DNA of 64,000 bases, taken from contig CALXVH010000002.1 in assembly GCA_944391965.1 (NCBI GenBank), positions 22,425 to 86,424 of the forward strand, written 5' to 3'. Of the stretch, positions 6,977 through 59,765 are shown in pieces (positions within the stretch are counted from its first letter, which is position 1; each line of letters starts with the position of its first letter). The notes under the pieces were generated by a model. The model was not told the origin of the DNA. It saw only the letters and a list, made by a program, of their open reading frames with translations, and ran no database searches. The DNA comes from an uncultured Clostridia bacterium (GTDB lineage: Bacteria; Bacillota; Clostridia; TANB77; CAG-508). The translations under genes and the position numbers were made by a program.

Positions 6977-7103
6977 AAAATCCTTCCCCTTTATCCGAAT
7001 CTATTGGTATTATACCATTTTATTTATTAAGAAAAAAGAATATAAATTATTAATGTTTTATTAATAATTTATATTCTTCTTCTAATTTATATTTAATTAT
7101 TTT

Positions 7104-8219
7104 TTACTCTATATTTTCTTGTGCTTTTTGTTCTAATCTATAATTTACAAAATCTGATACTAATAATTTAATTACAGCAGCAACCGGTGCTCCTAAGAAC
7201 ATTCCTAATATACCAAAATAAGCTCCACCTACTGCAACTGCAAATATAACAAGTAATGGACTTAATTTTAAAGAACCACCTACTATTTTTGGATTAATAA
7301 TATTAGCATCTATTTGTTGTAAAATAATTACTATTACAAGCATCCATATTGCTTGCGCTAAGCCTCCTGTAACTAATGTTATTATTGCTGAAATTGCCAC
7401 TGCAAATATAGCACCAAAATATGGTATAAGGTTAAGCAATCCTATAAAGAAACCTAACAATACAGCATATTTCACTCCTAATAATGACATAGCTATCGAT
7501 GTTAATATTCCTACGACTATTCCATCTAATACCTGGCTTGATAAAAATTTAAAGAAGTATTCATTTGCATTATTAAAATACTTGATTAATCTTTCTGCAG
7601 TGTTTGGTTTAAATACTGCTATAATAAATTTTTTTAAAGCCTTTACTAATTTGCCTCTTGCTGCTAATACATATACAGAAACTACAATTGCAACAAATAT
7701 ATTTAATAGGCTTGTAGCAAAACTAAATATACCAGATAAATAATTTAATATTTGCATAATATCTATTTCTTTTAATTTTGCTATTGCCTGCTCTAAGAAA
7801 TCTTTCTTTAAGAAAGAGTCATCTGGAAGAGCAGAAAATTTATTCATAATATCAGTTATATACCCTTGTGAATTATTTATTAATTCTATTATACTATCAT
7901 ATACTCTTGGTATAAGAAATTTCATTGCAATTATTAAAATAATTAAAATCAATACATATATTATTATTACACTGATTGGTCTTGCCTTTTTCTTTATGAG
8001 TTTTAATTTTCTTTTTTCTAGCTTTTTTTCTATTCCTCTACATGGTAAATATAATATATATGCTATTAAAATACCTGCTAGAAACGGACTAAGTATCTGA
8101 AAGAAATTACCTACTATTTGCTTTAAATTATCAAAATTATTAAATATATTAAATACAATTATAATTGCCACTCCAAAGCTAAACCAATATAGCCATTTTT
8201 TCCAACTATTTTCTTTCAT
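7104..8219 (-). CDS. AI-2E family transporter (PerM-like permease)
   Basis: A polytopic membrane protein with the characteristic C-terminal NIINPKIVGGSLKLSPLLVIFAV...GMFLGAPVAAV. Confidence 0.8.
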   Translation of the reverse strand: MKENSWKKWLYWFSFGVAIIIVFNIFNNFDNLKQIVGNFFQILSPFLAGILIAYILYLPCRGIEKKLEKRKLKLIKKKARPISVIIIYVLILIILIIAMKFLIPRVYDSIIELINNSQGYITDIMNKFSALPDDSFLKKDFLEQAIAKLKEIDIMQILNYLSGIFSFATSLLNIFVAIVVSVYVLAARGKLVKALKKFIIAVFKPNTAERLIKYFNNANEYFFKFLSSQVLDGIVVGILTSIAMSLLGVKYAVLLGFFIGLLNLIPYFGAIFAVAISAIITLVTGGLAQAIWMLVIVIILQQIDANIINPKIVGGSLKLSPLLVIFAVAVGGAYFGILGMFLGAPVAAVIKLLVSDFVNYRLEQKAQENIE

Positions 8220-52044: not shown

Positions 52045-53322
52045 TTAATTTTTTGATTTGTTATAATTTTGAATTTTTTTGTTGCTTAGTATTACTTTAT
52101 ATAAAGTGCGGAACGACAACCGTACGTAGCTGAAGTAGTTAGTCGGACCGTAGTAGTTACGATAGTCTGCTGGATATCTGTCGCCATCTTTCTTGTAATG
52201 GCCACCCCTACACACCCTGTTGATGGAACTGCTGGCCTCCATTGTCCAGTCCCACACATTACCTGCTAGGTCGTATATGTTATTTGCTTTCGTGTATTCT
52301 GTACTTCCTGTTGGAATTCTTGTACTACTTCCCTCATTTTTCGTTGCTGTACTTCCACTACTATTTACATATTCAAATGTCGCATTGTTATAGTTTCCCC
52401 AACTTGTTGAGTCATCTGCTATTTGCTCTTTTGTTTTACTTCCTGTCTCTATTAACCACATCAACGTTCTATCCCATTGGTTTCCCCATATCATTCCTGT
52501 TTCTACATTTGTATTGTCTCCTTTAATGTTTTTACATCTTTTATACATGTTGTACCATGTTTGAAAATTTATATCTGTGTTTCCTTTTTGTACTACTGGT
52601 GTTTCTTGGTTTATATTTCCTGTTTCATATCTTCCTATATAGAATCCTCCATACTTTTCTACACTTACTATCATATTATTAAATTCTTTTTCTAGCTGAT
52701 TTAAAAATTCATGGGTTGTTTTGGCTCCTAGTCCTCTAGTTTTTAAAGTTGAATCATAATCATAGCTTTTTACTATATCCGGCTCTCTATAACTCGTTTT
52801 ACTACTTATTGTCATTACTCCATCGCTTTCGCTCCAGTTATATGGTTTCGTTCCTGTTATTTCATCATAACTACTACTCATACTTGACGAAAACTGATAT
52901 TGTTTTCCCCATTTCTTTCCATTGGCATCAGTTCCATAGAATTTACTTATATCTGGTACTGGTATCCACACATATTGGTTTCTACTTTTTTGTGCATCAG
53001 CTACATTGCTGTCTGTTACTTCTTCTTCTCCTTCGTATATTACATATCCTGTATCTATTTCATTTTCTCCTGCCACACTACTTCCTACATATCCGTTTGG
53101 TACTGGTACTTTATCTCCACTTGCATCTTCTTCTACGTGCATATGCTCATTATTTTCCAAATTTATGGCGTTTACAGTTGATTTTGTAGCTTGTAATACA
53201 GTACTATTCTCTTTTTTAGAAAATGCAAAAATTAAACTTGTTAAAACTACTATAACTGCTAATATTCCGCAAATTATGCATACCATTTTTCTATTTATTT
53301 GCTTTCTTGTTTTCTCAGCCAT
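52045..53322 (-). CDS. DGR target protein 1: membrane-anchored FGE-sulfatase/C-type-lectin-fold protein carrying VR1
   Basis: N-terminal TM helix (VCIICGILAVIVVLTSLIFAF). C-terminal GMIWGNQWDRTLMWL ... NIYDLAGNVWDWTMEA ... RVCRGGHY is the FGE/CLec hallmark. The last about 44 structured residues align to the TR. Confidence 0.85.
   Translation of the reverse strand: MAEKTRKQINRKMVCIICGILAVIVVLTSLIFAFSKKENSTVLQATKSTVNAINLENNEHMHVEEDASGDKVPVPNGYVGSSVAGENEIDTGYVIYEGEEEVTDSNVADAQKSRNQYVWIPVPDISKFYGTDANGKKWGKQYQFSSSMSSSYDEITGTKPYNWSESDGVMTISSKTSYREPDIVKSYDYDSTLKTRGLGAKTTHEFLNQLEKEFNNMIVSVEKYGGFYIGRYETGNINQETPVVQKGNTDINFQTWYNMYKRCKNIKGDNTNVETGMIWGNQWDRTLMWLIETGSKTKEQIADDSTSWGNYNNATFEYVNSSGSTATKNEGSSTRIPTGSTEYTKANNIYDLAGNVWDWTMEASSSINRVCRGGHYKKDGDRYPADYRNYYGPTNYFSYVRLSFRTLYKVILSNKKIQNYNKSKN
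52105..52237 (-). repeat. DGR variable region VR1
   Basis: 133 nt aligning without gaps to the TR. My hand count gives 27 mismatches, 19 at TR adenines (coding sense) and 8 elsewhere. Confidence 0.8.
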
Positions 53323-53512: not shown

Positions 53513-53767
53513 TTAATCTAAAAACTTAAAATTATATATTTCTATAATCTCAACTTGCATATTTTCTCTCAGTCTTCCTCTTAAAAAAAACTCTTCTAAA
53601 TCTTTTTGATATATGTAATCTGCTATGTTATCATACGCAAACACCTCTATTTCCGAATTATTTAATAACTTTGCTTTAAATAAAACTTTTGATTTTTCTT
53701 TACTATTTATTACAAATTTAAAATTTATATCACTTGTTCTTTTTACAAATAAAAAACATTCATTCAT
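53513..53767 (-). CDS. Small hypothetical protein (84 aa) conserved in both repeat copies
   Basis: ...SEIEVFAYDNIADYIYQKDLEEFFLRGRLRENMQVEIIEIYNFKFLD is about 85% identical to the ORF at 57396-57587. It vaguely recalls an OB-fold/SSB pattern. No clear RBS. Confidence 0.35.
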   Translation of the reverse strand: MNECFLFVKRTSDINFKFVINSKEKSKVLFKAKLLNNSEIEVFAYDNIADYIYQKDLEEFFLRGRLRENMQVEIIEIYNFKFLD

Positions 53768-53987
53768 AATTATTTGTTAAAATTCTTAGCAATTATTAAC
53801 TAAAATCATAAAACGATACTTTTTCCTAATCTTTTAGGAAAGGGCTTAAAATACATACTTTCGTCATACCTACCGGTATATATTTTAATGATTCATATTT
53901 ACCTAAAATAGGAAGGAATAAACCTCTTTAATATCTAATATTTCGCTGGACTACTTCCTTAAAACTAGCCATCTGGATTGATATTAG

Positions 53988-54120
53988 AGTGCTGCACGAC
54001 AACCGTCTGTTGCTATTGTTGTTAGTCGGATTGTTGTTGTTACGATTGTCTGCTGGATTGTTGTCGCCATTGTTGTTGTAATTGCCACCCCTATACGCCC
54101 TGTTGTTGGTACCGTTGGCC
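53988..54120 (-). repeat. DGR template repeat (TR)
   Basis: Starts 13 nt after the RT stop codon. In coding sense it reads gcc aac ggt acc aac aac agg ... aac aga cgg ttg tcg tgc agc act. My hand count gives about 51 adenines in 133 nt and 18 AAY codons in 44. It aligns to VR1 and VR2. Confidence 0.9.
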
Positions 54121-54133
54121 TTTTGGTCTATCC

Positions 54134-55144
54134 CTAATTTATATAAAAAAGTTTTTCTTCCAAATTCCTTGTATTTGCATATTTCATATAACCTAAATGT
54201 CCACATATAAATCTACTTGCTTCTTTACTACTCATATTGCCCTTTTGTACTTCTTTTTTTAAATATTTAACCTTTTGTTTAATAGCTTTTTTACCTCTGT
54301 CGCGTAGCTTTAAACGATATTCATTTATCTTGTATCCACAAAAATTTACTCCTTGATCACTTTTAAATATTTGGGTTTTGTCGTTTAATTCTAATTCCAA
54401 TTTTATTTTTAAATAATTTTTAATTTTTTCTAAAAGTTCAATGGCTTCTTTCTTTGTTTTTACAAATAAAATCGAATCATCCATATATCTAAAATAGTAT
54501 TTTACCTTAAGCTCGTGCTTTATATATTGGTCTATTTCGTTTAAGTATATATTTGCAAATATTTGCGAGGTATAATTACCTATCGGAAGTCCTTTTTTAC
54601 CTGAATTTGAATACACTATTTTTTCTAATAGTTCTACTAGTTTTTCTTCTTTTACTTTTCTTTTTAAAATATTCATTAAAATATCTTTATCTATATTCTG
54701 AAAATATTTTCGAATATCCATTTTTAAAATATAGTAATTTTGCCATATTCTTTTGCAATGCTTCATTGTATTTTGTACATCCATAGATGCTTTATGCATT
54801 CCTCTATTTTTTATACACGCATATGATGTATTTATAAATTGATTTACAAAATATCTATTTAAGAAACTATCTACTATCCATCTATGTACAATTCTATCCA
54901 TATATCGTGAAGCTTCTATTTTTCTTCTTTTAGGATACTGTATATAAAAAATTCTATATCCGCCATGTTTATAAGTTCCGTTTTTTAGCTGTTCATATAA
55001 CCATCTGATATATTCTTCTTGTTTTAGATTAAATAGAATTACTTCTTTTTTATAGTTTTTTCCTTTTCTAGAAAGTAAATGTGCTTTCATAAGATTGTCA
55101 TAAGTTAAATATTTATCAAATTCATGCCTTATTGTTTTTGCCAT
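54134..55144 (-). CDS. DGR-type reverse transcriptase
   Basis: 336 aa with RT motifs ILKMDIRKYFQNI (A), GLPIGNYTSQIFANIYLNEID (B, containing the DGR-specific [I/L/V]GxxxSQ), FRYMDDSILFV (C, YMDD) and VNFCGYKI (E). There are no intron-maturase or endonuclease extensions. Confidence 0.9.
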   Translation of the reverse strand: MAKTIRHEFDKYLTYDNLMKAHLLSRKGKNYKKEVILFNLKQEEYIRWLYEQLKNGTYKHGGYRIFYIQYPKRRKIEASRYMDRIVHRWIVDSFLNRYFVNQFINTSYACIKNRGMHKASMDVQNTMKHCKRIWQNYYILKMDIRKYFQNIDKDILMNILKRKVKEEKLVELLEKIVYSNSGKKGLPIGNYTSQIFANIYLNEIDQYIKHELKVKYYFRYMDDSILFVKTKKEAIELLEKIKNYLKIKLELELNDKTQIFKSDQGVNFCGYKINEYRLKLRDRGKKAIKQKVKYLKKEVQKGNMSSKEASRFICGHLGYMKYANTRNLEEKLFYIN

Positions 55145-55496
55145 AGTATTTTACTAAGCCTCCTATTATTTTTCCCATTTCGTATATTAGGCTCATGGCA
55201 TATTCGAATTTTTTCTTATCTATCCATGCGTTTTTACACATGATTCTTAACAAAATTCTTTGAACACTTAAATCTGCATCAATTTTATTGATACTTTTAA
55301 ACCTATCTTTTATTTCTATTTTGTTTAAGTACATTATGCCTTCTAACATCTTATACATAGAATTCTTGTATTCTGTTCCTATACTAAATTTTTCTGTTCT
55401 TGGAATTTTTAATATTACTTCTAGCATATATTCAATATATCTTTCGGATTTTGGAATTAATGTTAATTCATTTTCTTTTTTATTTAACTTTTCCAA
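55122..55496 (-). CDS. avd: Avd-like accessory variability determinant (four-helix-bundle family)
   Basis: 124 aa, helical and basic. It overlaps the RT start by 23 nt and the upstream gene by 17 nt. The pattern YIEYMLEVILKIPRTEKFSIGTEYKNSMYKMLEGIMYLN fits the Avd / 23S-rRNA-IVS protein family. The start appears to be TTG. Confidence 0.7.
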   Translation of the reverse strand: MEKLNKKENELTLIPKSERYIEYMLEVILKIPRTEKFSIGTEYKNSMYKMLEGIMYLNKIEIKDRFKSINKIDADLSVQRILLRIMCKNAWIDKKKFEYAMSLIYEMGKIIGGLVKYYGKNNKA

Positions 55497-55875
55497 GCTT
55501 TCTCACTCTTTCTAATATATCTTCTTCCTGTTCTTTTCTGTTTGTACAACTTGTACATTCTAAACAGTTTTTGGTTTCCTCAGTATTTTTACCTTTGTAT
55601 CTATATATTTCTTCTAATTCATCTTTTTCGTTTTTTATATATAAAATAAACGAATAGCCTAGTTTCTCTAACTTCTCTATATATTTCTCTACATTTTTTA
55701 CTAAAAATCCTACTTTACACAGTTCTTTTCGCATACAAGTTAGTTTTAAGCCTAATTCTTCATTTAAAATTATTGCATCTTTTCCTATTGCTACAAAAAA
55801 TATTCCATTTTTTGCTAATATTATTGTACCTTCATTTTCTTTTTGTATTTTTTCCACTTCTTGGACGAATTTCAT
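55480..55875 (-). CDS. MutS-domain-I-like small accessory protein with a C-terminal Cys cluster
   Basis: 131 aa. [33 protein letters not shown] aligns by eye to E. coli MutS [60 protein letters not shown] aligns to [26 protein letters not shown]. The tail is [12 protein letters not shown]. Confidence 0.65.
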   Translation of the reverse strand: [131 protein letters not shown]

Positions 55876-55971
55876 ATTTTATTTTCCTCCACATAAACAC
55901 AAATTATTAATTTTCTATTATTTAAACTTCTTTACTTGTTATAGTGCATCGCTACCAGGGCTCAGTATTAC

Positions 55972-57213
55972 TTAATATAAAGTGCTGCACGACAACCGTA
56001 GGTAGCTAGCGCCGTCAGTAGGAACGTCGTTGCTACGATCGTCAGCTGGAACGTAGTCGCCATAGTTGCTGAAATTGCCACCCCTAGACGCCCTGTAGCC
56101 GGTACCGTAGGCCTCCATTGTCCAGTCCCTTACGTTTCCGACTAGGTCGTATATGTTATTTGCTTTCGTGTATTCTGTACTTCCTGTTGGAATTCTTGTA
56201 CTACTATTTTTGTTTTTCGTTGCTGTACTTCCACTATTATTTACATATTCAAATGTCGCATCGATATAGTTTCCCCAACTTGTTGAGTCATCTGCTATTT
56301 GCTCTTTTGTTTTACTTCCTGTTTCTATTAACCACATCAACGTTCTATCCCATTGGTTTCCCCATATCATTCCTGTTTCTACATTTGTATTGTCTCCTTT
56401 AATGTTTTTACATCTTTTATACATGTTGTACCATGTTTGACTACTTATATTTGTATTTCCTTTTTGTACTACTGGTGTTTCTTGGTTTATATTTCCTGTT
56501 TCATATCTTCCTATATAAAACCCTCCATATTTTTCTACACTTGCTACCATATTATTAAACTCTTTTTCTAACTGATTTAAAAATTCATGAGTTGTTTTGG
56601 CGCCTATTCCTAATGTTTTTAATCTTGAATCCATATCATAACCTGTACTACTATATTTTGCTACTACGTCTGGCTCTCTATAATTTGTTTTACTACTTAT
56701 TGTCATTACTCCATTGTTTTCGCTCCAATTATATGGCTTTGTTCCTGTTATTTCATCATAACTACTACTCGTACTTGACGAAAATGTATATATTTTTCCC
56801 CATTTCTTTCCATTGGCATCTGTTCCATAAAATTTACTTATATCTGGTACTGGTATCCACACATATTGGTTTCTACTTTTTTGTGCATCAGCTACATTGC
56901 TGTCTGTTACTTCTTCTTCTCCTTCGTATATTACATATCCTGTATCTATTTCATTTTCTCCTGCCACACTACTTCCTACATATCCGTTTGGTACTGGTAC
57001 TTTATCTCCACTTGCATCTTCTTCTACGTGCATATGCTCATTATTTTCCAAATTTATGGCGTTTACAGTTGATTTTGTAGCTTGTAATACAGTACTATTC
57101 TCTTTTTTAGAAAATGCAAAAATTAAACTTGTTAAAACTACTATAACTGCTAATATTCCGCAAATTATGCATACCATTTTTCTATTTATTTGCTTTCTTG
57201 TTTTCTCAGCCAT
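55972..57213 (-). CDS. DGR target protein 2: membrane-anchored FGE-sulfatase/C-type-lectin-fold protein carrying VR2
   Basis: A paralog of target 1 with an identical N-terminal ~140 aa, NIYDLVGNVRDWTMEA and RASRGGNF. I place the start at the ATG at 57213 (MAEKT), 8 nt after AAGGAG, as in copy A. Confidence 0.85.
   Translation of the reverse strand: MAEKTRKQINRKMVCIICGILAVIVVLTSLIFAFSKKENSTVLQATKSTVNAINLENNEHMHVEEDASGDKVPVPNGYVGSSVAGENEIDTGYVIYEGEEEVTDSNVADAQKSRNQYVWIPVPDISKFYGTDANGKKWGKIYTFSSSTSSSYDEITGTKPYNWSENNGVMTISSKTNYREPDVVAKYSSTGYDMDSRLKTLGIGAKTTHEFLNQLEKEFNNMVASVEKYGGFYIGRYETGNINQETPVVQKGNTNISSQTWYNMYKRCKNIKGDNTNVETGMIWGNQWDRTLMWLIETGSKTKEQIADDSTSWGNYIDATFEYVNNSGSTATKNKNSSTRIPTGSTEYTKANNIYDLVGNVRDWTMEAYGTGYRASRGGNFSNYGDYVPADDRSNDVPTDGASYLRLSCSTLY
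55981..56113 (-). repeat. DGR variable region VR2
   Basis: 133 nt aligning without gaps to the TR. My hand count gives 26 mismatches, 24 at TR adenines. The 3'-terminal 19 nt (acggttgtcgtgcagcact) are identical to the TR. Confidence 0.9.
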
Positions 57214-57251
57214 TTTCATTTCTCCTTCAAGATTTTATATTATATATATTT

Positions 57252-57395: not shown

Positions 57396-57611
57396 TTATT
57401 CTAAAAACTTAAAATTATATATTTCTATAATTTCAACTTTCATATTTTCTTGTAGCTTACCCCTTAAGAAAAACACTTCTAAATCTTTTTGATATATATA
57501 ATCTGCTATGTTATCATATATAAACACCTCTATTTCCGAATCATTTAATAACTTTGTTTTAATAAAACTTTTGATTTTTCTTTGCAATTTATTACAAATT
57601 TAAAATTTATA
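57396..57611 (-). pseudogene. Frameshifted and truncated copy of the small ORF at 53513-53767
   Basis: It has a 1-nt deletion relative to copy A (gctttaaataaaac versus gttttaataaaac on the plus strand). The upstream part (NINFKFVINCKEKSK) is in a different frame and is preceded by a stop codon. Only a 63 aa TTG-initiated ORF remains. Confidence 0.5.
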
Positions 57612-58064: not shown

Positions 58065-59765
58065 TTATAAATTGTCTTTATATTCTTCTAATCTCGCTTT
58101 AATTTCACTAGCAGATGACATCCTTAAAATCTCTTGAACTAATTTCTTACATTCTTTGTGATTTAAATTTCTAATCATCTTTCTAGAATTTAATATTTTG
58201 GTAGGATTCATAGAAAACTCATCTAATCCTAATCCAACTAAAAGAGGTATAAATCTTTCATCAGCAGCTGCTTCTCCACACATTCCGCAGAAAATCTTAG
58301 ATTTGTGTGCTCCGTCGATTGCCATTTTTATTAAACGTATAACTGCAGGATGAAATTTAGTATATAAATCTGATATTCTTTCATTTCCTCTTTCAACTGC
58401 AACAGTATATTGAATTAAATCATTTGTACCAATACTAAAGAAATCACATTCTTTTGCCAACTCATCTGCCATTATTGCAGCTGATGGAATCTCTATCATT
58501 ATTCCAACCTTAACATTTTTATCAAATTTTACTTTTTCTGCCTTTAATTCTTCTTTAACTTCATTTATGATATCTTTTGCAGCTCTTAGCTCATCTACAG
58601 AAGAAATCATAGGAAGCATAATTGCAAGTTTTCCGTAAATACTTGCTCTATATAAAGCTCTTAATTGAACTTTAAAAATTTCTGGTTCGCGTAAACAAAT
58701 TCTAATTGCTCTGTATCCTAAAAAAGGATTATCTTCTTTTTCTAAATTTAAATATTTTAAGTCTTTATCTCCACCAATATCCAATGTGCGAACTATAACT
58801 CTTTTACCTTCTGATTTTTCTAGCACCTCTTTATATGCTTCAAATTGTTCTTCTTCTGTTGGCATAGTATCAGAATCCATATATAAAAATTCGCTTCTAA
58901 ATAAACCTACTCCCTCTGCACCATTTTCGATAACTGCATCCATATCCTTAGGAGTTCCTATATTAGCCACTACTTCTGTTTTATATCCATCTTTAGTAAT
59001 GCTCTTCTTATTCCTAAATTTCGCTAAACTTCCTTTTTCGTCCTTTAACTCATTTTGGATTTTTTCTAATTTAGCGACCTCATCTTGTGAAGGATCTAAA
59101 AATATTTCTCCAGTTCCTCCATTTATTGCAATATACATGTCGTTAGCTATGCTATCTAAAGCTCCTTTAGCTCCAACTATTGCAGGAATCTCGTGAGTTC
59201 TTGCCATAATTGAAACATGTGAATTTTCACTACCATTTTCTATTATAATTCCTGCAACAGAATTCAAATTTAATTTAGCTGTATCTGATGTAGATAAGTC
59301 TTTTCCGACTAAAATAGTCTTTTCTGGTAAATTACTTAAATCCAACTCAGCTTTATTAATAATTTTATTTATGACTTTATTTTTCATGTCTTCTATATCA
59401 GATGCTCTTGCAGACATATATTCGTCGTCCATATTCTTAAAAACTTCTTCGACAGTTTCAAAGCCTACTTTTGCAGCATATCCTGCATTATATCCATCTT
59501 CCTGTATTAGTCTTTCTGTTTCCTCAGTTAGTGTAGGGTCCTGTAATATCATCAAATAAGCATTCATAATATCTGCTTCTGTTCCAGAAAGTTTTTCTAA
59601 AACTTCCCTAGTATCTTCTATTACATTATTTAGACATTTTTTAAAATAACTTAATTCATTTTCTTTATCTTCAACTTTAAAATCAGTAAGTTTTACTTCT
59701 TCATTCTTTAATACTTTTGTATGTCCAATCCCAATACCCTTTGATACACCTTTACCTTTTACCAT
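58065..59765 (-). CDS. ptsI: Phosphoenolpyruvate-protein phosphotransferase (PTS Enzyme I)
   Basis: 566 aa with the active-site His region GSENSHVSIMARTHEIPAIVG, GTNDLIQYT and CGMCGE. Confidence 0.92.
   Translation of the reverse strand: MVKGKGVSKGIGIGHTKVLKNEEVKLTDFKVEDKENELSYFKKCLNNVIEDTREVLEKLSGTEADIMNAYLMILQDPTLTEETERLIQEDGYNAGYAAKVGFETVEEVFKNMDDEYMSARASDIEDMKNKVINKIINKAELDLSNLPEKTILVGKDLSTSDTAKLNLNSVAGIIIENGSENSHVSIMARTHEIPAIVGAKGALDSIANDMYIAINGGTGEIFLDPSQDEVAKLEKIQNELKDEKGSLAKFRNKKSITKDGYKTEVVANIGTPKDMDAVIENGAEGVGLFRSEFLYMDSDTMPTEEEQFEAYKEVLEKSEGKRVIVRTLDIGGDKDLKYLNLEKEDNPFLGYRAIRICLREPEIFKVQLRALYRASIYGKLAIMLPMISSVDELRAAKDIINEVKEELKAEKVKFDKNVKVGIMIEIPSAAIMADELAKECDFFSIGTNDLIQYTVAVERGNERISDLYTKFHPAVIRLIKMAIDGAHKSKIFCGMCGEAAADERFIPLLVGLGLDEFSMNPTKILNSRKMIRNLNHKECKKLVQEILRMSSASEIKARLEEYKDNL

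Follow-up and report, generated by a model that had tools for sequence, protein, structure and literature searches.

The window analysed here, a stretch of 64,000 nucleotides, comes from an uncultured human-gut Clostridium (CAG:354-like) and carries a chromosomal DGR whose genes all lie on the minus strand (Table 1). Read along that strand, the order is target gene T2 with its repeat VR2, a MutS-like gene, avd, the RT gene, TR, an RT-14 RNA, a small ORF and a second target gene, T1, with VR1. A gene for a 3855-aa adhesin lies next after T1. The presence of an RT, an Avd protein, a MutS_I protein and an RT-14 RNA, together with adenine-biased mismatches between TR and the VRs, identifies the locus as a complete DGR of the ordinary Avd plus MSL type; the MSL class of DGR accessory proteins has been described previously (PMC5758913). 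In NCBIfam, which holds no DGR-specific RT model, the best matches of the RT were to group II and retron RT models, all below cutoff, and Avd scored 72.5 bits with the DivGenRetAVD model (cutoff 80). Both targets matched Pfam PF03781 below its curated cutoff (T1, E = 0.009; T2, E = 5e-4), and a PDB profile search with T1 retrieved SUMF2 at E = 0.03. An AlphaFold model of T1, computed from a 29-sequence alignment, had a mean pLDDT of 33, too low for use. A family match was sought for the 84-aa small ORF and none was found. The RT-14 RNA region is kept in distant loci, and its position suggests that it is likely the spacer/priming RNA of the DGR transcript. The original description of RT-14 (Weinberg et al. 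in 2017) reportedly noted only its association with RT genes; here the match to the motif is full length and directly 3' of TR.

Table 1. Features of the DGR locus in the window (positions in the window; minus sign, minus strand).
Feature	Positions	Strand	Evidence or remark
Read-through tail KVILSNKKIQNYNKSKN, 17 codons plus stop	52045..52098	-	ORF translation, alignment
T1, 425 aa, N-terminal membrane anchor	52045..53322	-	Weak FGE-sulfatase/C-type-lectin-like C-terminus
Proximal VR1 3' flank TTATATAAAGTAATACTAAGC	52084..52104	-	Common to VR2; flank homology stops here (repeat family D2 ends 52084/55960)
VR1 (T1 3' end)	52105..52238	-	134-nt TR homology
Small ORF, 84 aa, upstream of T1	53513..53767	-	Second copy upstream of T2, 57396-57587
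RT-14 RNA (Rfam RF02921), directly 3' of TR	53846..53989	-	120.9 bits vs gathering score 48.1, full length
TR, 53 adenines, 137-nt-repeat type	53988..54121	-	Alignment
DGR RT, 336 aa	54134..55144	-	Pfam RVT_1, 74.1 bits; motifs LPIGNYTSQ, YMDD
Avd accessory protein	55122..55496	-	Pfam bAvd, 67.6 bits vs cutoff 40
MutS domain I-like accessory protein (MSL class)	55480..55875	-	Pfam MutS_I, 36.4 bits vs cutoff 20.6
VR2 3' flank motif TTATATTAAGTAATACTGAGCCCTGGTAGCGATGCAC	55944..55980	-	Conserved after main VR in related loci
T2	55972..57219	-	ORF translation
VR2	55981..56114	-	In step with resident TR

Three copies of the repeat, and only three, are present in the window, at 52102-52238 (VR1), 53985-54121 (TR) and 55978-56114 (VR2) in their 137-nt extent; a search of the window with the 19-nt 3' block returned three sites, with 0 expected by chance. 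Every TR examined has C at position 135 of the repeat and every VR has T, which marks the IMH*/IMH divergence and leaves a true homology 134 nt long. TR and VR2 share ACGGTTGTCGTGCAGCACT, a GC-rich IMH block after which the flanks diverge. The GC-rich block of VR1, CGTTCCGCACT, is not identical to that of TR, CGTGCAGCACT, and has two mismatches in the last 8 bases.

A recount over the 134 nt reproduced the mismatch numbers given in the initial annotation of this DNA. VR1 has 27 mismatches to TR, 19 at adenines and eight at non-adenine positions, and VR2 has 26, of which 24 are at adenines and just two are not (95 G>T and 115 G>T). The eight non-adenine changes of VR1 are, by TR position, 9 G>A, 25 C>T, 47 C>G, 50 C>A, 62 C>A, 107 T>C, 115 G>T and 127 G>T, and the codons quoted as examples are present (AAC AAC AAT in TR vs AAG AAA GAT in VR1, and AAC vs AGA). 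The adenine bias is pronounced for VR2, with 24 of 53 adenines mismatched against 2 of 81 other bases (p = 7e-10). For VR1 the corresponding fractions are 19/53 and 8/81 (p = 4e-4); since this repeat is still strongly adenine-biased, it was written by a DGR at some time. Within the window alone, the difference in non-adenine mismatches between VR1 and VR2 is weak (8/81 vs 2/81, Fisher p = 0.10). Set against 24 independent TR/VR2 pairs from related strains, which carry 0-3 non-adenine mismatches with a mean of 0.75, VR1 with its eight is an outlier (Poisson P about 1e-6).

As the initial annotation had proposed, we compared the orthologous loci. A search with the RT yielded 160 related loci in GTDB genomes and metagenomes of the human gut, and exact-protein look-ups added five more; the closest belong to metagenome-assembled genomes that carry the label Clostridium sp. 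CAG:354 or uncultured Clostridium. The comparison found VR1 out of step with its resident TR. It also revealed two types of repeat. Majority strains (the L001 type, more than 20 loci) have a 136-nt repeat ending in ...AATTATGGTTGTCGTTCCGCACT, and in the window and in loci L062, L162, L089 and L002 the repeat is 1 nt longer and ends in ...AGACGGTTGTCGTGCAGCACT. This 1-nt difference in TR length shifts the reading frame across the 3' block and the flank. Proteins of the 136-nt type end in ...YGCRSALYIK*, and those of the 137-nt type end in ...RRLSCSTLY* with a TATTAAG flank or read ...RLSCSTLYKVIL... with a TATAAAG flank. VRs at the T2 site are almost all different from one another, with 97 distinct sequences among 99 records of the 136-nt type and 29 among 36 of the 137-nt type. 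The T2 site is hypervariable in natural populations of the species.

The strain comparison bears directly on the earlier suggestion that VR1 is either no longer overwritten or was last templated by an older TR. VR1 is indeed out of step with TR, and an older TR accounts for five of the eight non-adenine differences, not for all. The bases A, T and C of VR1 at positions 9, 25 and 107 are also those of TRs from other strains, in contrast to G, C and T in the window TR, with which VR2 agrees. VR1 positions 9, 25, 107, 115 and 127, as well as the adenine site 129, match TR alleles found in L001-type strains, L002, L089 or L162. That five of the eight non-adenine differences are TR alleles of other strains points to an older or different TR version as the template. 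The remaining three changes, 47 C>G, 50 C>A and 62 C>A, are private to VR1; in each, a purine replaces the third base of AAC, and the resulting residues are Lys, Lys and Arg. With changes at adenines alone, the window TR cannot give rise to Lys, Glu, Gln, Met or Trp, and these residues are absent from 93 of the 97 VR2 cores of the 136-nt type.

An altered 3' boundary, a lost stop codon and an added tail had likewise been taken to indicate a retired target. All three differences exist: the 3' block of VR1 differs from that of TR and VR2, the sequence reads TAT AAA in T1 and TAT TAA in T2 (the AAA at 52096-52098 occupies the position of TAA in VR2), and there is a read-through tail, of 17 rather than 18 aa. 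As signs of decay, however, they do not hold. The 3' end of VR1, GGTTGTCGTTCCGCACTTTATATAAAGTAATACT (CGTTCCGCACT followed by the TATAAAG flank), is identical over 34 nt to the majority L001-type TR/VR2 allele, which makes the altered block the majority allele of the species and TATAAAG the majority flank allele. In the frame of the 136-nt type, the A/T difference in the flank falls silently in an Ile codon, and both forms are seen in distant relatives. The missing stop codon was rejected as a sign of decay given the majority status of TATAAAG and its silence in the 136-nt frame, and a loss of the stop is only one possible direction of the change. At least 12 of the 34 137-nt-type T2 proteins, a set that leaves out VR1-type records, carry the TAT AAA read-through tail, and their VR sequences differ. 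Being common among variable VR2 proteins, the tail is no mark of a dead target. Two of the four supposed symptoms of decay, the boundary and the stop, are thus ordinary population alleles.

VR1 itself does not vary among strains. Its peptide is a single sequence in all seven protein records that carry it, the repeat is invariant in the five assemblies that hold it, L162 among them, and the exact T1 protein is present in several samples. Across the seven protein records and L161, L162, L163 and L062, no variation at TR-adenine positions of VR1 was found between strains or samples. A search for VR1 variants with the 88-aa T1 C-terminus as query was unproductive, returning short unrelated fragments only. 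T1, VR1 and the flank show 0 differences over ~1.9 kb from both L162 and L163. The T1 sequences of the window, L162 and L163 are 100% identical, which indicates very recent shared ancestry of those copies. Elsewhere in the locus, L162 differs from the window at 8 positions of TR, at 31 of VR2 and by 8.4% in the non-VR part of T2, and its VR1 is even farther from its own resident TR. The T1 gene of L062 was considered as a pseudogene and this was rejected, as its 135-nt deletion is in frame and lies between VPVP/IPVP repeats. The non-adenine divergence of VR1 from TR, 9.9%, matches the T1/T2 paralog background of 5-12%; TR is thus not homogenising VR1.

The same pattern recurs at the T1 site of all six lineages examined, where the VR is out of step with the resident TR. 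Non-adenine mismatches at this site number 8 in the window, 10 in L062 and 8 in L164; L089 has about 10 together with a 3-nt insertion, and L002 has 2-4 together with a 3-nt deletion. In L001-type strains the T1 C-terminus is an invariant sequence that does not resemble TR and is identical across 12 loci. Two further T1-site records, P0016 and P0070, are separated by ordinary point changes, one of them in the tail.

The stasis of VR1 has to be read against that of VR2 in the closest relatives. The VR2 allele of the window is almost unchanged in L164, L165 and nine cluster records, with differences at codons 2, 3 and 5 and at position 114 only. The TR of L164 has an L001-type 3' half, and its VR2 is out of step too (5 non-adenine mismatches plus 5 gap columns); in L165 and L086, TR is fused to the T1-site flank, and the RT-14 RNA, the small ORF and T1 are deleted. 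With VR2 static in close relatives, homing is rare relative to recombination in this sublineage, and the stasis of VR1 among the closest relatives is therefore weak evidence when taken alone. VR2 counts as active and VR1 as retired in relative terms, not in absolute ones. Stronger evidence for retirement comes from the retained older TR alleles and from the T1-site pattern in every lineage. From this evidence, VR1 is probably no longer rewritten from the current template, a known kind of decay.

The two sites also differ in the sequence beyond the VR. A flank motif of ~37 nt, with the consensus CACTTTA-N4-AAGTAG-N2-CTG-N4-CT-N5-GCGAT and reaching about 22 nt beyond the stop codon, follows the main VR in conserved form in loci with RT identities as low as about 62% and is partial in more distant loci. 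It is kept whether the main VR lies upstream or downstream of the RT. Homology between T1 and T2 ends 21 nt past the VR. The VR1 flank matches that of VR2 up to ...GTAATACTAAGC, and the distal half of the motif, CCTGGTAGCGATGCAC (55944-55959 at VR2), is absent. All T1-site VRs are without at least part of this distal half; L164 retains a few more bases, and its T1-site VR, despite having slightly more of the motif, is out of step. Two distant DGRs, L007 and L028, have two VRs each; where the motif is complete the VR shows 2 and 0 non-adenine mismatches, respectively, and the VR without the distal half has 9 plus 9 gap columns and 4 plus 5. Absence of the distal half is the likely reason why VR1 would not be rewritten. 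As a correlation across about six lineages, the association nominates the motif as a candidate determinant of VR activity, and the two mismatches between the GC-rich block of VR1 and the current TR may add to the failure to rewrite VR1.

In Bordetella phage BPP-1, homing is efficient only with the sequence 3' of VR, comprising IMH and an adjacent element, and this sequence suffices to retarget it (PMC3240598); a GC-rich inverted repeat 3' of IMH occurs in only 34% of DGRs (PMC5758913). A hairpin or cruciform 3' of VR2 and missing at VR1 was rejected as the relevant feature, as the DNA of the two flanks (z = 0.6 and -0.9), folded for both strands, does not differ from shuffled sequence. RNAalifold analysis of 20 diverse flanks identified an invariant 4-bp palindrome only, with no covariation. 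With neither hairpin nor covariation, the flank element would act via its sequence. Taken further, and as speculation that we regard as rather unlikely in its full extent, targets of RT-14-associated Clostridia DGRs might be recognised by a ~37-nt sequence-specific 3' motif and not by a GC hairpin, and the endpoint of a duplication would decide which copy can be diversified. Cut copies would then persist as frozen, 'archived' receptors that mutate to residues TR cannot encode (here Lys, Lys and Arg) and spread by recombination as alleles of fixed specificity.

The explanation that we favour, and hold to be probable as a whole, is that VR1 is a fossil. It would have been written by adenine-mutagenic reverse transcription from an earlier TR allele that had A, T and C at positions 9, 25 and 107, respectively, and a TTCC 3' block. 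The writing would have taken place at the T1 site, or else in a copy of T2 before duplication or conversion carried that copy into T1. Later changes in TR would have reached VR2 and not VR1, which would then have gained three ordinary point mutations to Lys, Lys and Arg. Its boundary and stop would represent the majority flank allele read in the frame of the 1-nt-longer TR. The duplication that made the T1 copy presumably ended 21 nt past the VR, so that the distal CCTGGTAGCGATGCAC would have been lost, and the T1 segment with VR1 unchanged would have moved between strains by homologous recombination.

A different history, tentative in our judgement yet deserving attention, is that VR1 was never a homing target at T1 and is a snapshot of a former VR2, copied there by duplication or gene conversion. 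The 3' half of the window T1 lies closer to T2 genes than to the L001-type T1, being, for instance, 97-98% identical to L001 T2 and 58-77% to L001 T1 in several 100-nt blocks, and in L002 T1 and T2 are 100% identical over 600 nt, attesting to paralog conversion; the stop of T2-flank homology 21 nt past the VR also fits a snapshot. The identical tract of L002 stops before the VRs, however, and these differ at many adenine sites, so at least one of them was rewritten after the conversion. A snapshot origin is in any case compatible with the main conclusion, and only the history differs. Much less probable is a VR1 that is still active and owes its non-adenine differences to noncanonical mutagenesis by the RT, as Wu et al. 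(2018) raised for discordant multi-target DGRs (PMC5758913). The VR2s here do carry low-level non-adenine changes, mostly G>T, but the same RT yields only 0-3 of these at VR2, and the private C>G, C>A and C>A changes of VR1 are unlike that spectrum. Five of the eight VR1 differences coincide with TR alleles of other strains and so are not random, and VR1 is invariant in all records.

Two further alternatives were weighed. VR1 might be served by a second TR located beyond the 64-kb window, given that some related metagenome-assembled genomes have more than one RT locus of the family (e.g., BRZ_FG bin101, with L034 and L038) and that remote targets are known in other DGRs (PMC5758913). The window itself, however, holds no second TR or other TR-like copy, RT or target paralog; VR1 lies 1.9 kb from the window TR and has the same boundaries at its 5' and 3' ends, it would be unusual for a TR to encode AAG AAA ... 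AGA, and VR1 does not vary between strains, which together make a remote template very improbable. Chimeric sequence across repeats can arise in metagenome assemblies, and assembly error had been named in the initial annotation as an outcome that would refute drift of VR1. Errors of assembly or consensus in the repeat region are effectively refuted as the source of the non-adenine differences, and we give them almost no credence, since the same VR1 was recovered in independent assemblies from different samples (L161, L162, L163, an NCBI 116-kb contig and the first 113 nt in L062). We thus retain the interpretation of VR1 as a fossil of an earlier TR, probable as stated.

The locus resembles the BPP-1 DGR (mtd-avd-TR-brt) in having an Avd and an RT, a TR/VR pair of ~134 nt that is AAC-rich and mutagenised at adenines, a C-terminal VR in a target that may adopt a lectin fold, a GC-rich block common to TR and VR followed by IMH and IMH* flanks, and a structured RNA 3' of TR. 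Unlike BPP-1, it has the order target, MSL, avd, RT, TR, an extra MutS-like gene and two adjacent targets, it carries the ~37-nt conserved motif in place of a GC-rich hairpin after the VR, and it is chromosomal and not phage-borne. With Legionella pneumophila and other MSL DGRs it shares the occurrence of a small MutS domain I-like gene together with avd, and it differs in host, target and flank elements; Legionella needs a GC-rich inverted repeat, and none was found here. The closest parallel to VR1 is provided by multi-target DGRs in the survey of Wu et al. (2018, NAR 46:11), where 7 non-A-to-N differences in one target are set against none in the other, the cause being left open (PMC5758913). 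In such discordant DGRs (e.g., ANKO01000117.1_3531_4562), as here, one target shows adenine-only changes and the other several non-A-to-N differences or indels. Wu et al. suggested an extra mutagenic capability, whereas the population data here point to lost templating, with an older TR allele followed by drift.

To this the present analysis adds evidence at the population level for a probable fossil status of the discordant target, along with a candidate cis cause. Surveys meet non-adenine differences in targets and cannot separate dead targets from looser mutagenesis; comparison of strains splits these differences into change on the TR side, drift on the VR side and standing flank alleles. 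A 'lost stop codon' or 'altered boundary' read from a single genome can mislead. The flank motif is a candidate for the cis element by which a VR is marked for homing in gut DGRs of a common group without the Bordetella-type hairpin. If that role is true, the element would help to predict active targets and to engineer DGRs.

One position does not follow the division between VR1 and VR2. At 54007 (TR position 115) TR has G and both VRs have T, as the initial annotation had observed, and it had taken this to mean that TR probably mutated after the last homing events. The bases are as described, and a mutation of TR is not a sufficient explanation. All six known 137-nt TRs have G at position 115, and the position is T in VR2 of the window, L062, L162, L089, L164 and L165. 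Five assemblies, drawn from three lineages whose VR2 sequences differ, show the G(TR)/T(VR) discordance again, and the position-115 change is seen as Leu, Ile, Val or Met in 24 of the 34 137-nt-type T2 proteins (VR1-type records left out). Selection for a hydrophobic residue acting on rare misincorporation is one possible cause, and a peculiarity of cDNA initiation nearby is another. Among the VR2 sequences, G>T is the commonest non-adenine change, making up 10 of 18.

The template repeat (TR) of one related locus, L164, is a mosaic, with a 5' half of the window type and a 3' half of the L001 type (L164:9093-9228 and 7100-7236), which shows that TR/VR combinations are reshuffled by recombination. 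Because L164 combines this mosaic TR with the window's VR2 allele, its VR2 and resident TR are out of step, with mismatches at non-adenine positions. Two independent assemblies have a TR that is joined at GGTTGTCGTGCA to the 3' flank of the T1 site (L086:4235-4400 and L165:9099-9290). This fusion looks like the product of a TR × VR1 recombination in which the RT-14 RNA, the small ORF and T1 were lost, probably leaving the DGR inactive.

The TR itself is polymorphic in length by 1 nt at its 3' end (window 54005-54012), being 137 nt in the window and 136 nt in the majority, L001-type loci. With the 1-nt difference, the final ~7-8 target codons are read in different frames, resulting in two C-terminal families within one species, ...YGCRSALYIK* and ...RLSCSTLY*/KVIL-tail. 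At TR position 115 (window 54007), G in the TR is opposed by T in the VRs in most strains of the 137-nt type (the window, L062, L162, L089, L164 and L165). G>T is also the commonest non-adenine change across VR2s (10 of 18), and the residue preceding RLSC is L, I, V or M in 24 of 34 proteins.

In the majority strain type, the C-terminus of T1 (TRGLEMRAIRGGDCYVYGRAFSVSNREEDYRPTVSGAGCHAMLYIK) is AT-rich and dissimilar to the TR (L001:8849-8991 and 11 other loci), with no differences among the 12 loci; the majority-type T1 is a fixed, non-diversified paralog. T1 of L062, a locus with the 137-nt TR, has a 135-nt in-frame deletion flanked by two VPVP/IPVP repeats (window 52964-53098; L062:8037-8047). 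Outside the deletion it is 100% identical to the window's T1 up to VR1 position 113, beyond which a different 3'-end allele (…SSNALH*) is present.

Features around the DGR targets and TR in the window.
Feature	Size	Window position	Strand	Remarks
Surface protein	3855 aa	40443-52010	-	SpaA, MucBP and Cna_B repeats; directly downstream of T1
Small ORF	84 aa	53513-53767	-	Upstream of T1
RT-14 RNA (Rfam RF02921)		53846-53989	-	Full-length match, 120.9 bits; directly 3' of TR
MutS domain I-only accessory protein	131 aa	55480-55875	-	Between target and avd
Small ORF copy	63 aa	57396-57587	-	Upstream of T2
PTS genes, including PtsI		58065-59765 (PtsI)		Upstream of T2

The surface-protein and PTS genes on either side indicate that the DGR is chromosomal rather than located in a prophage. 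The RT-14 RNA region is kept in many distant loci and is probably the spacer/priming RNA of the DGR clade to which the window's DGR belongs. The gene for the MutS domain I-only protein is an MSL-class DGR accessory gene. The small ORF, which had no family match in Pfam or NCBIfam, is duplicated, with one copy preceding each target gene, and is kept in related loci.
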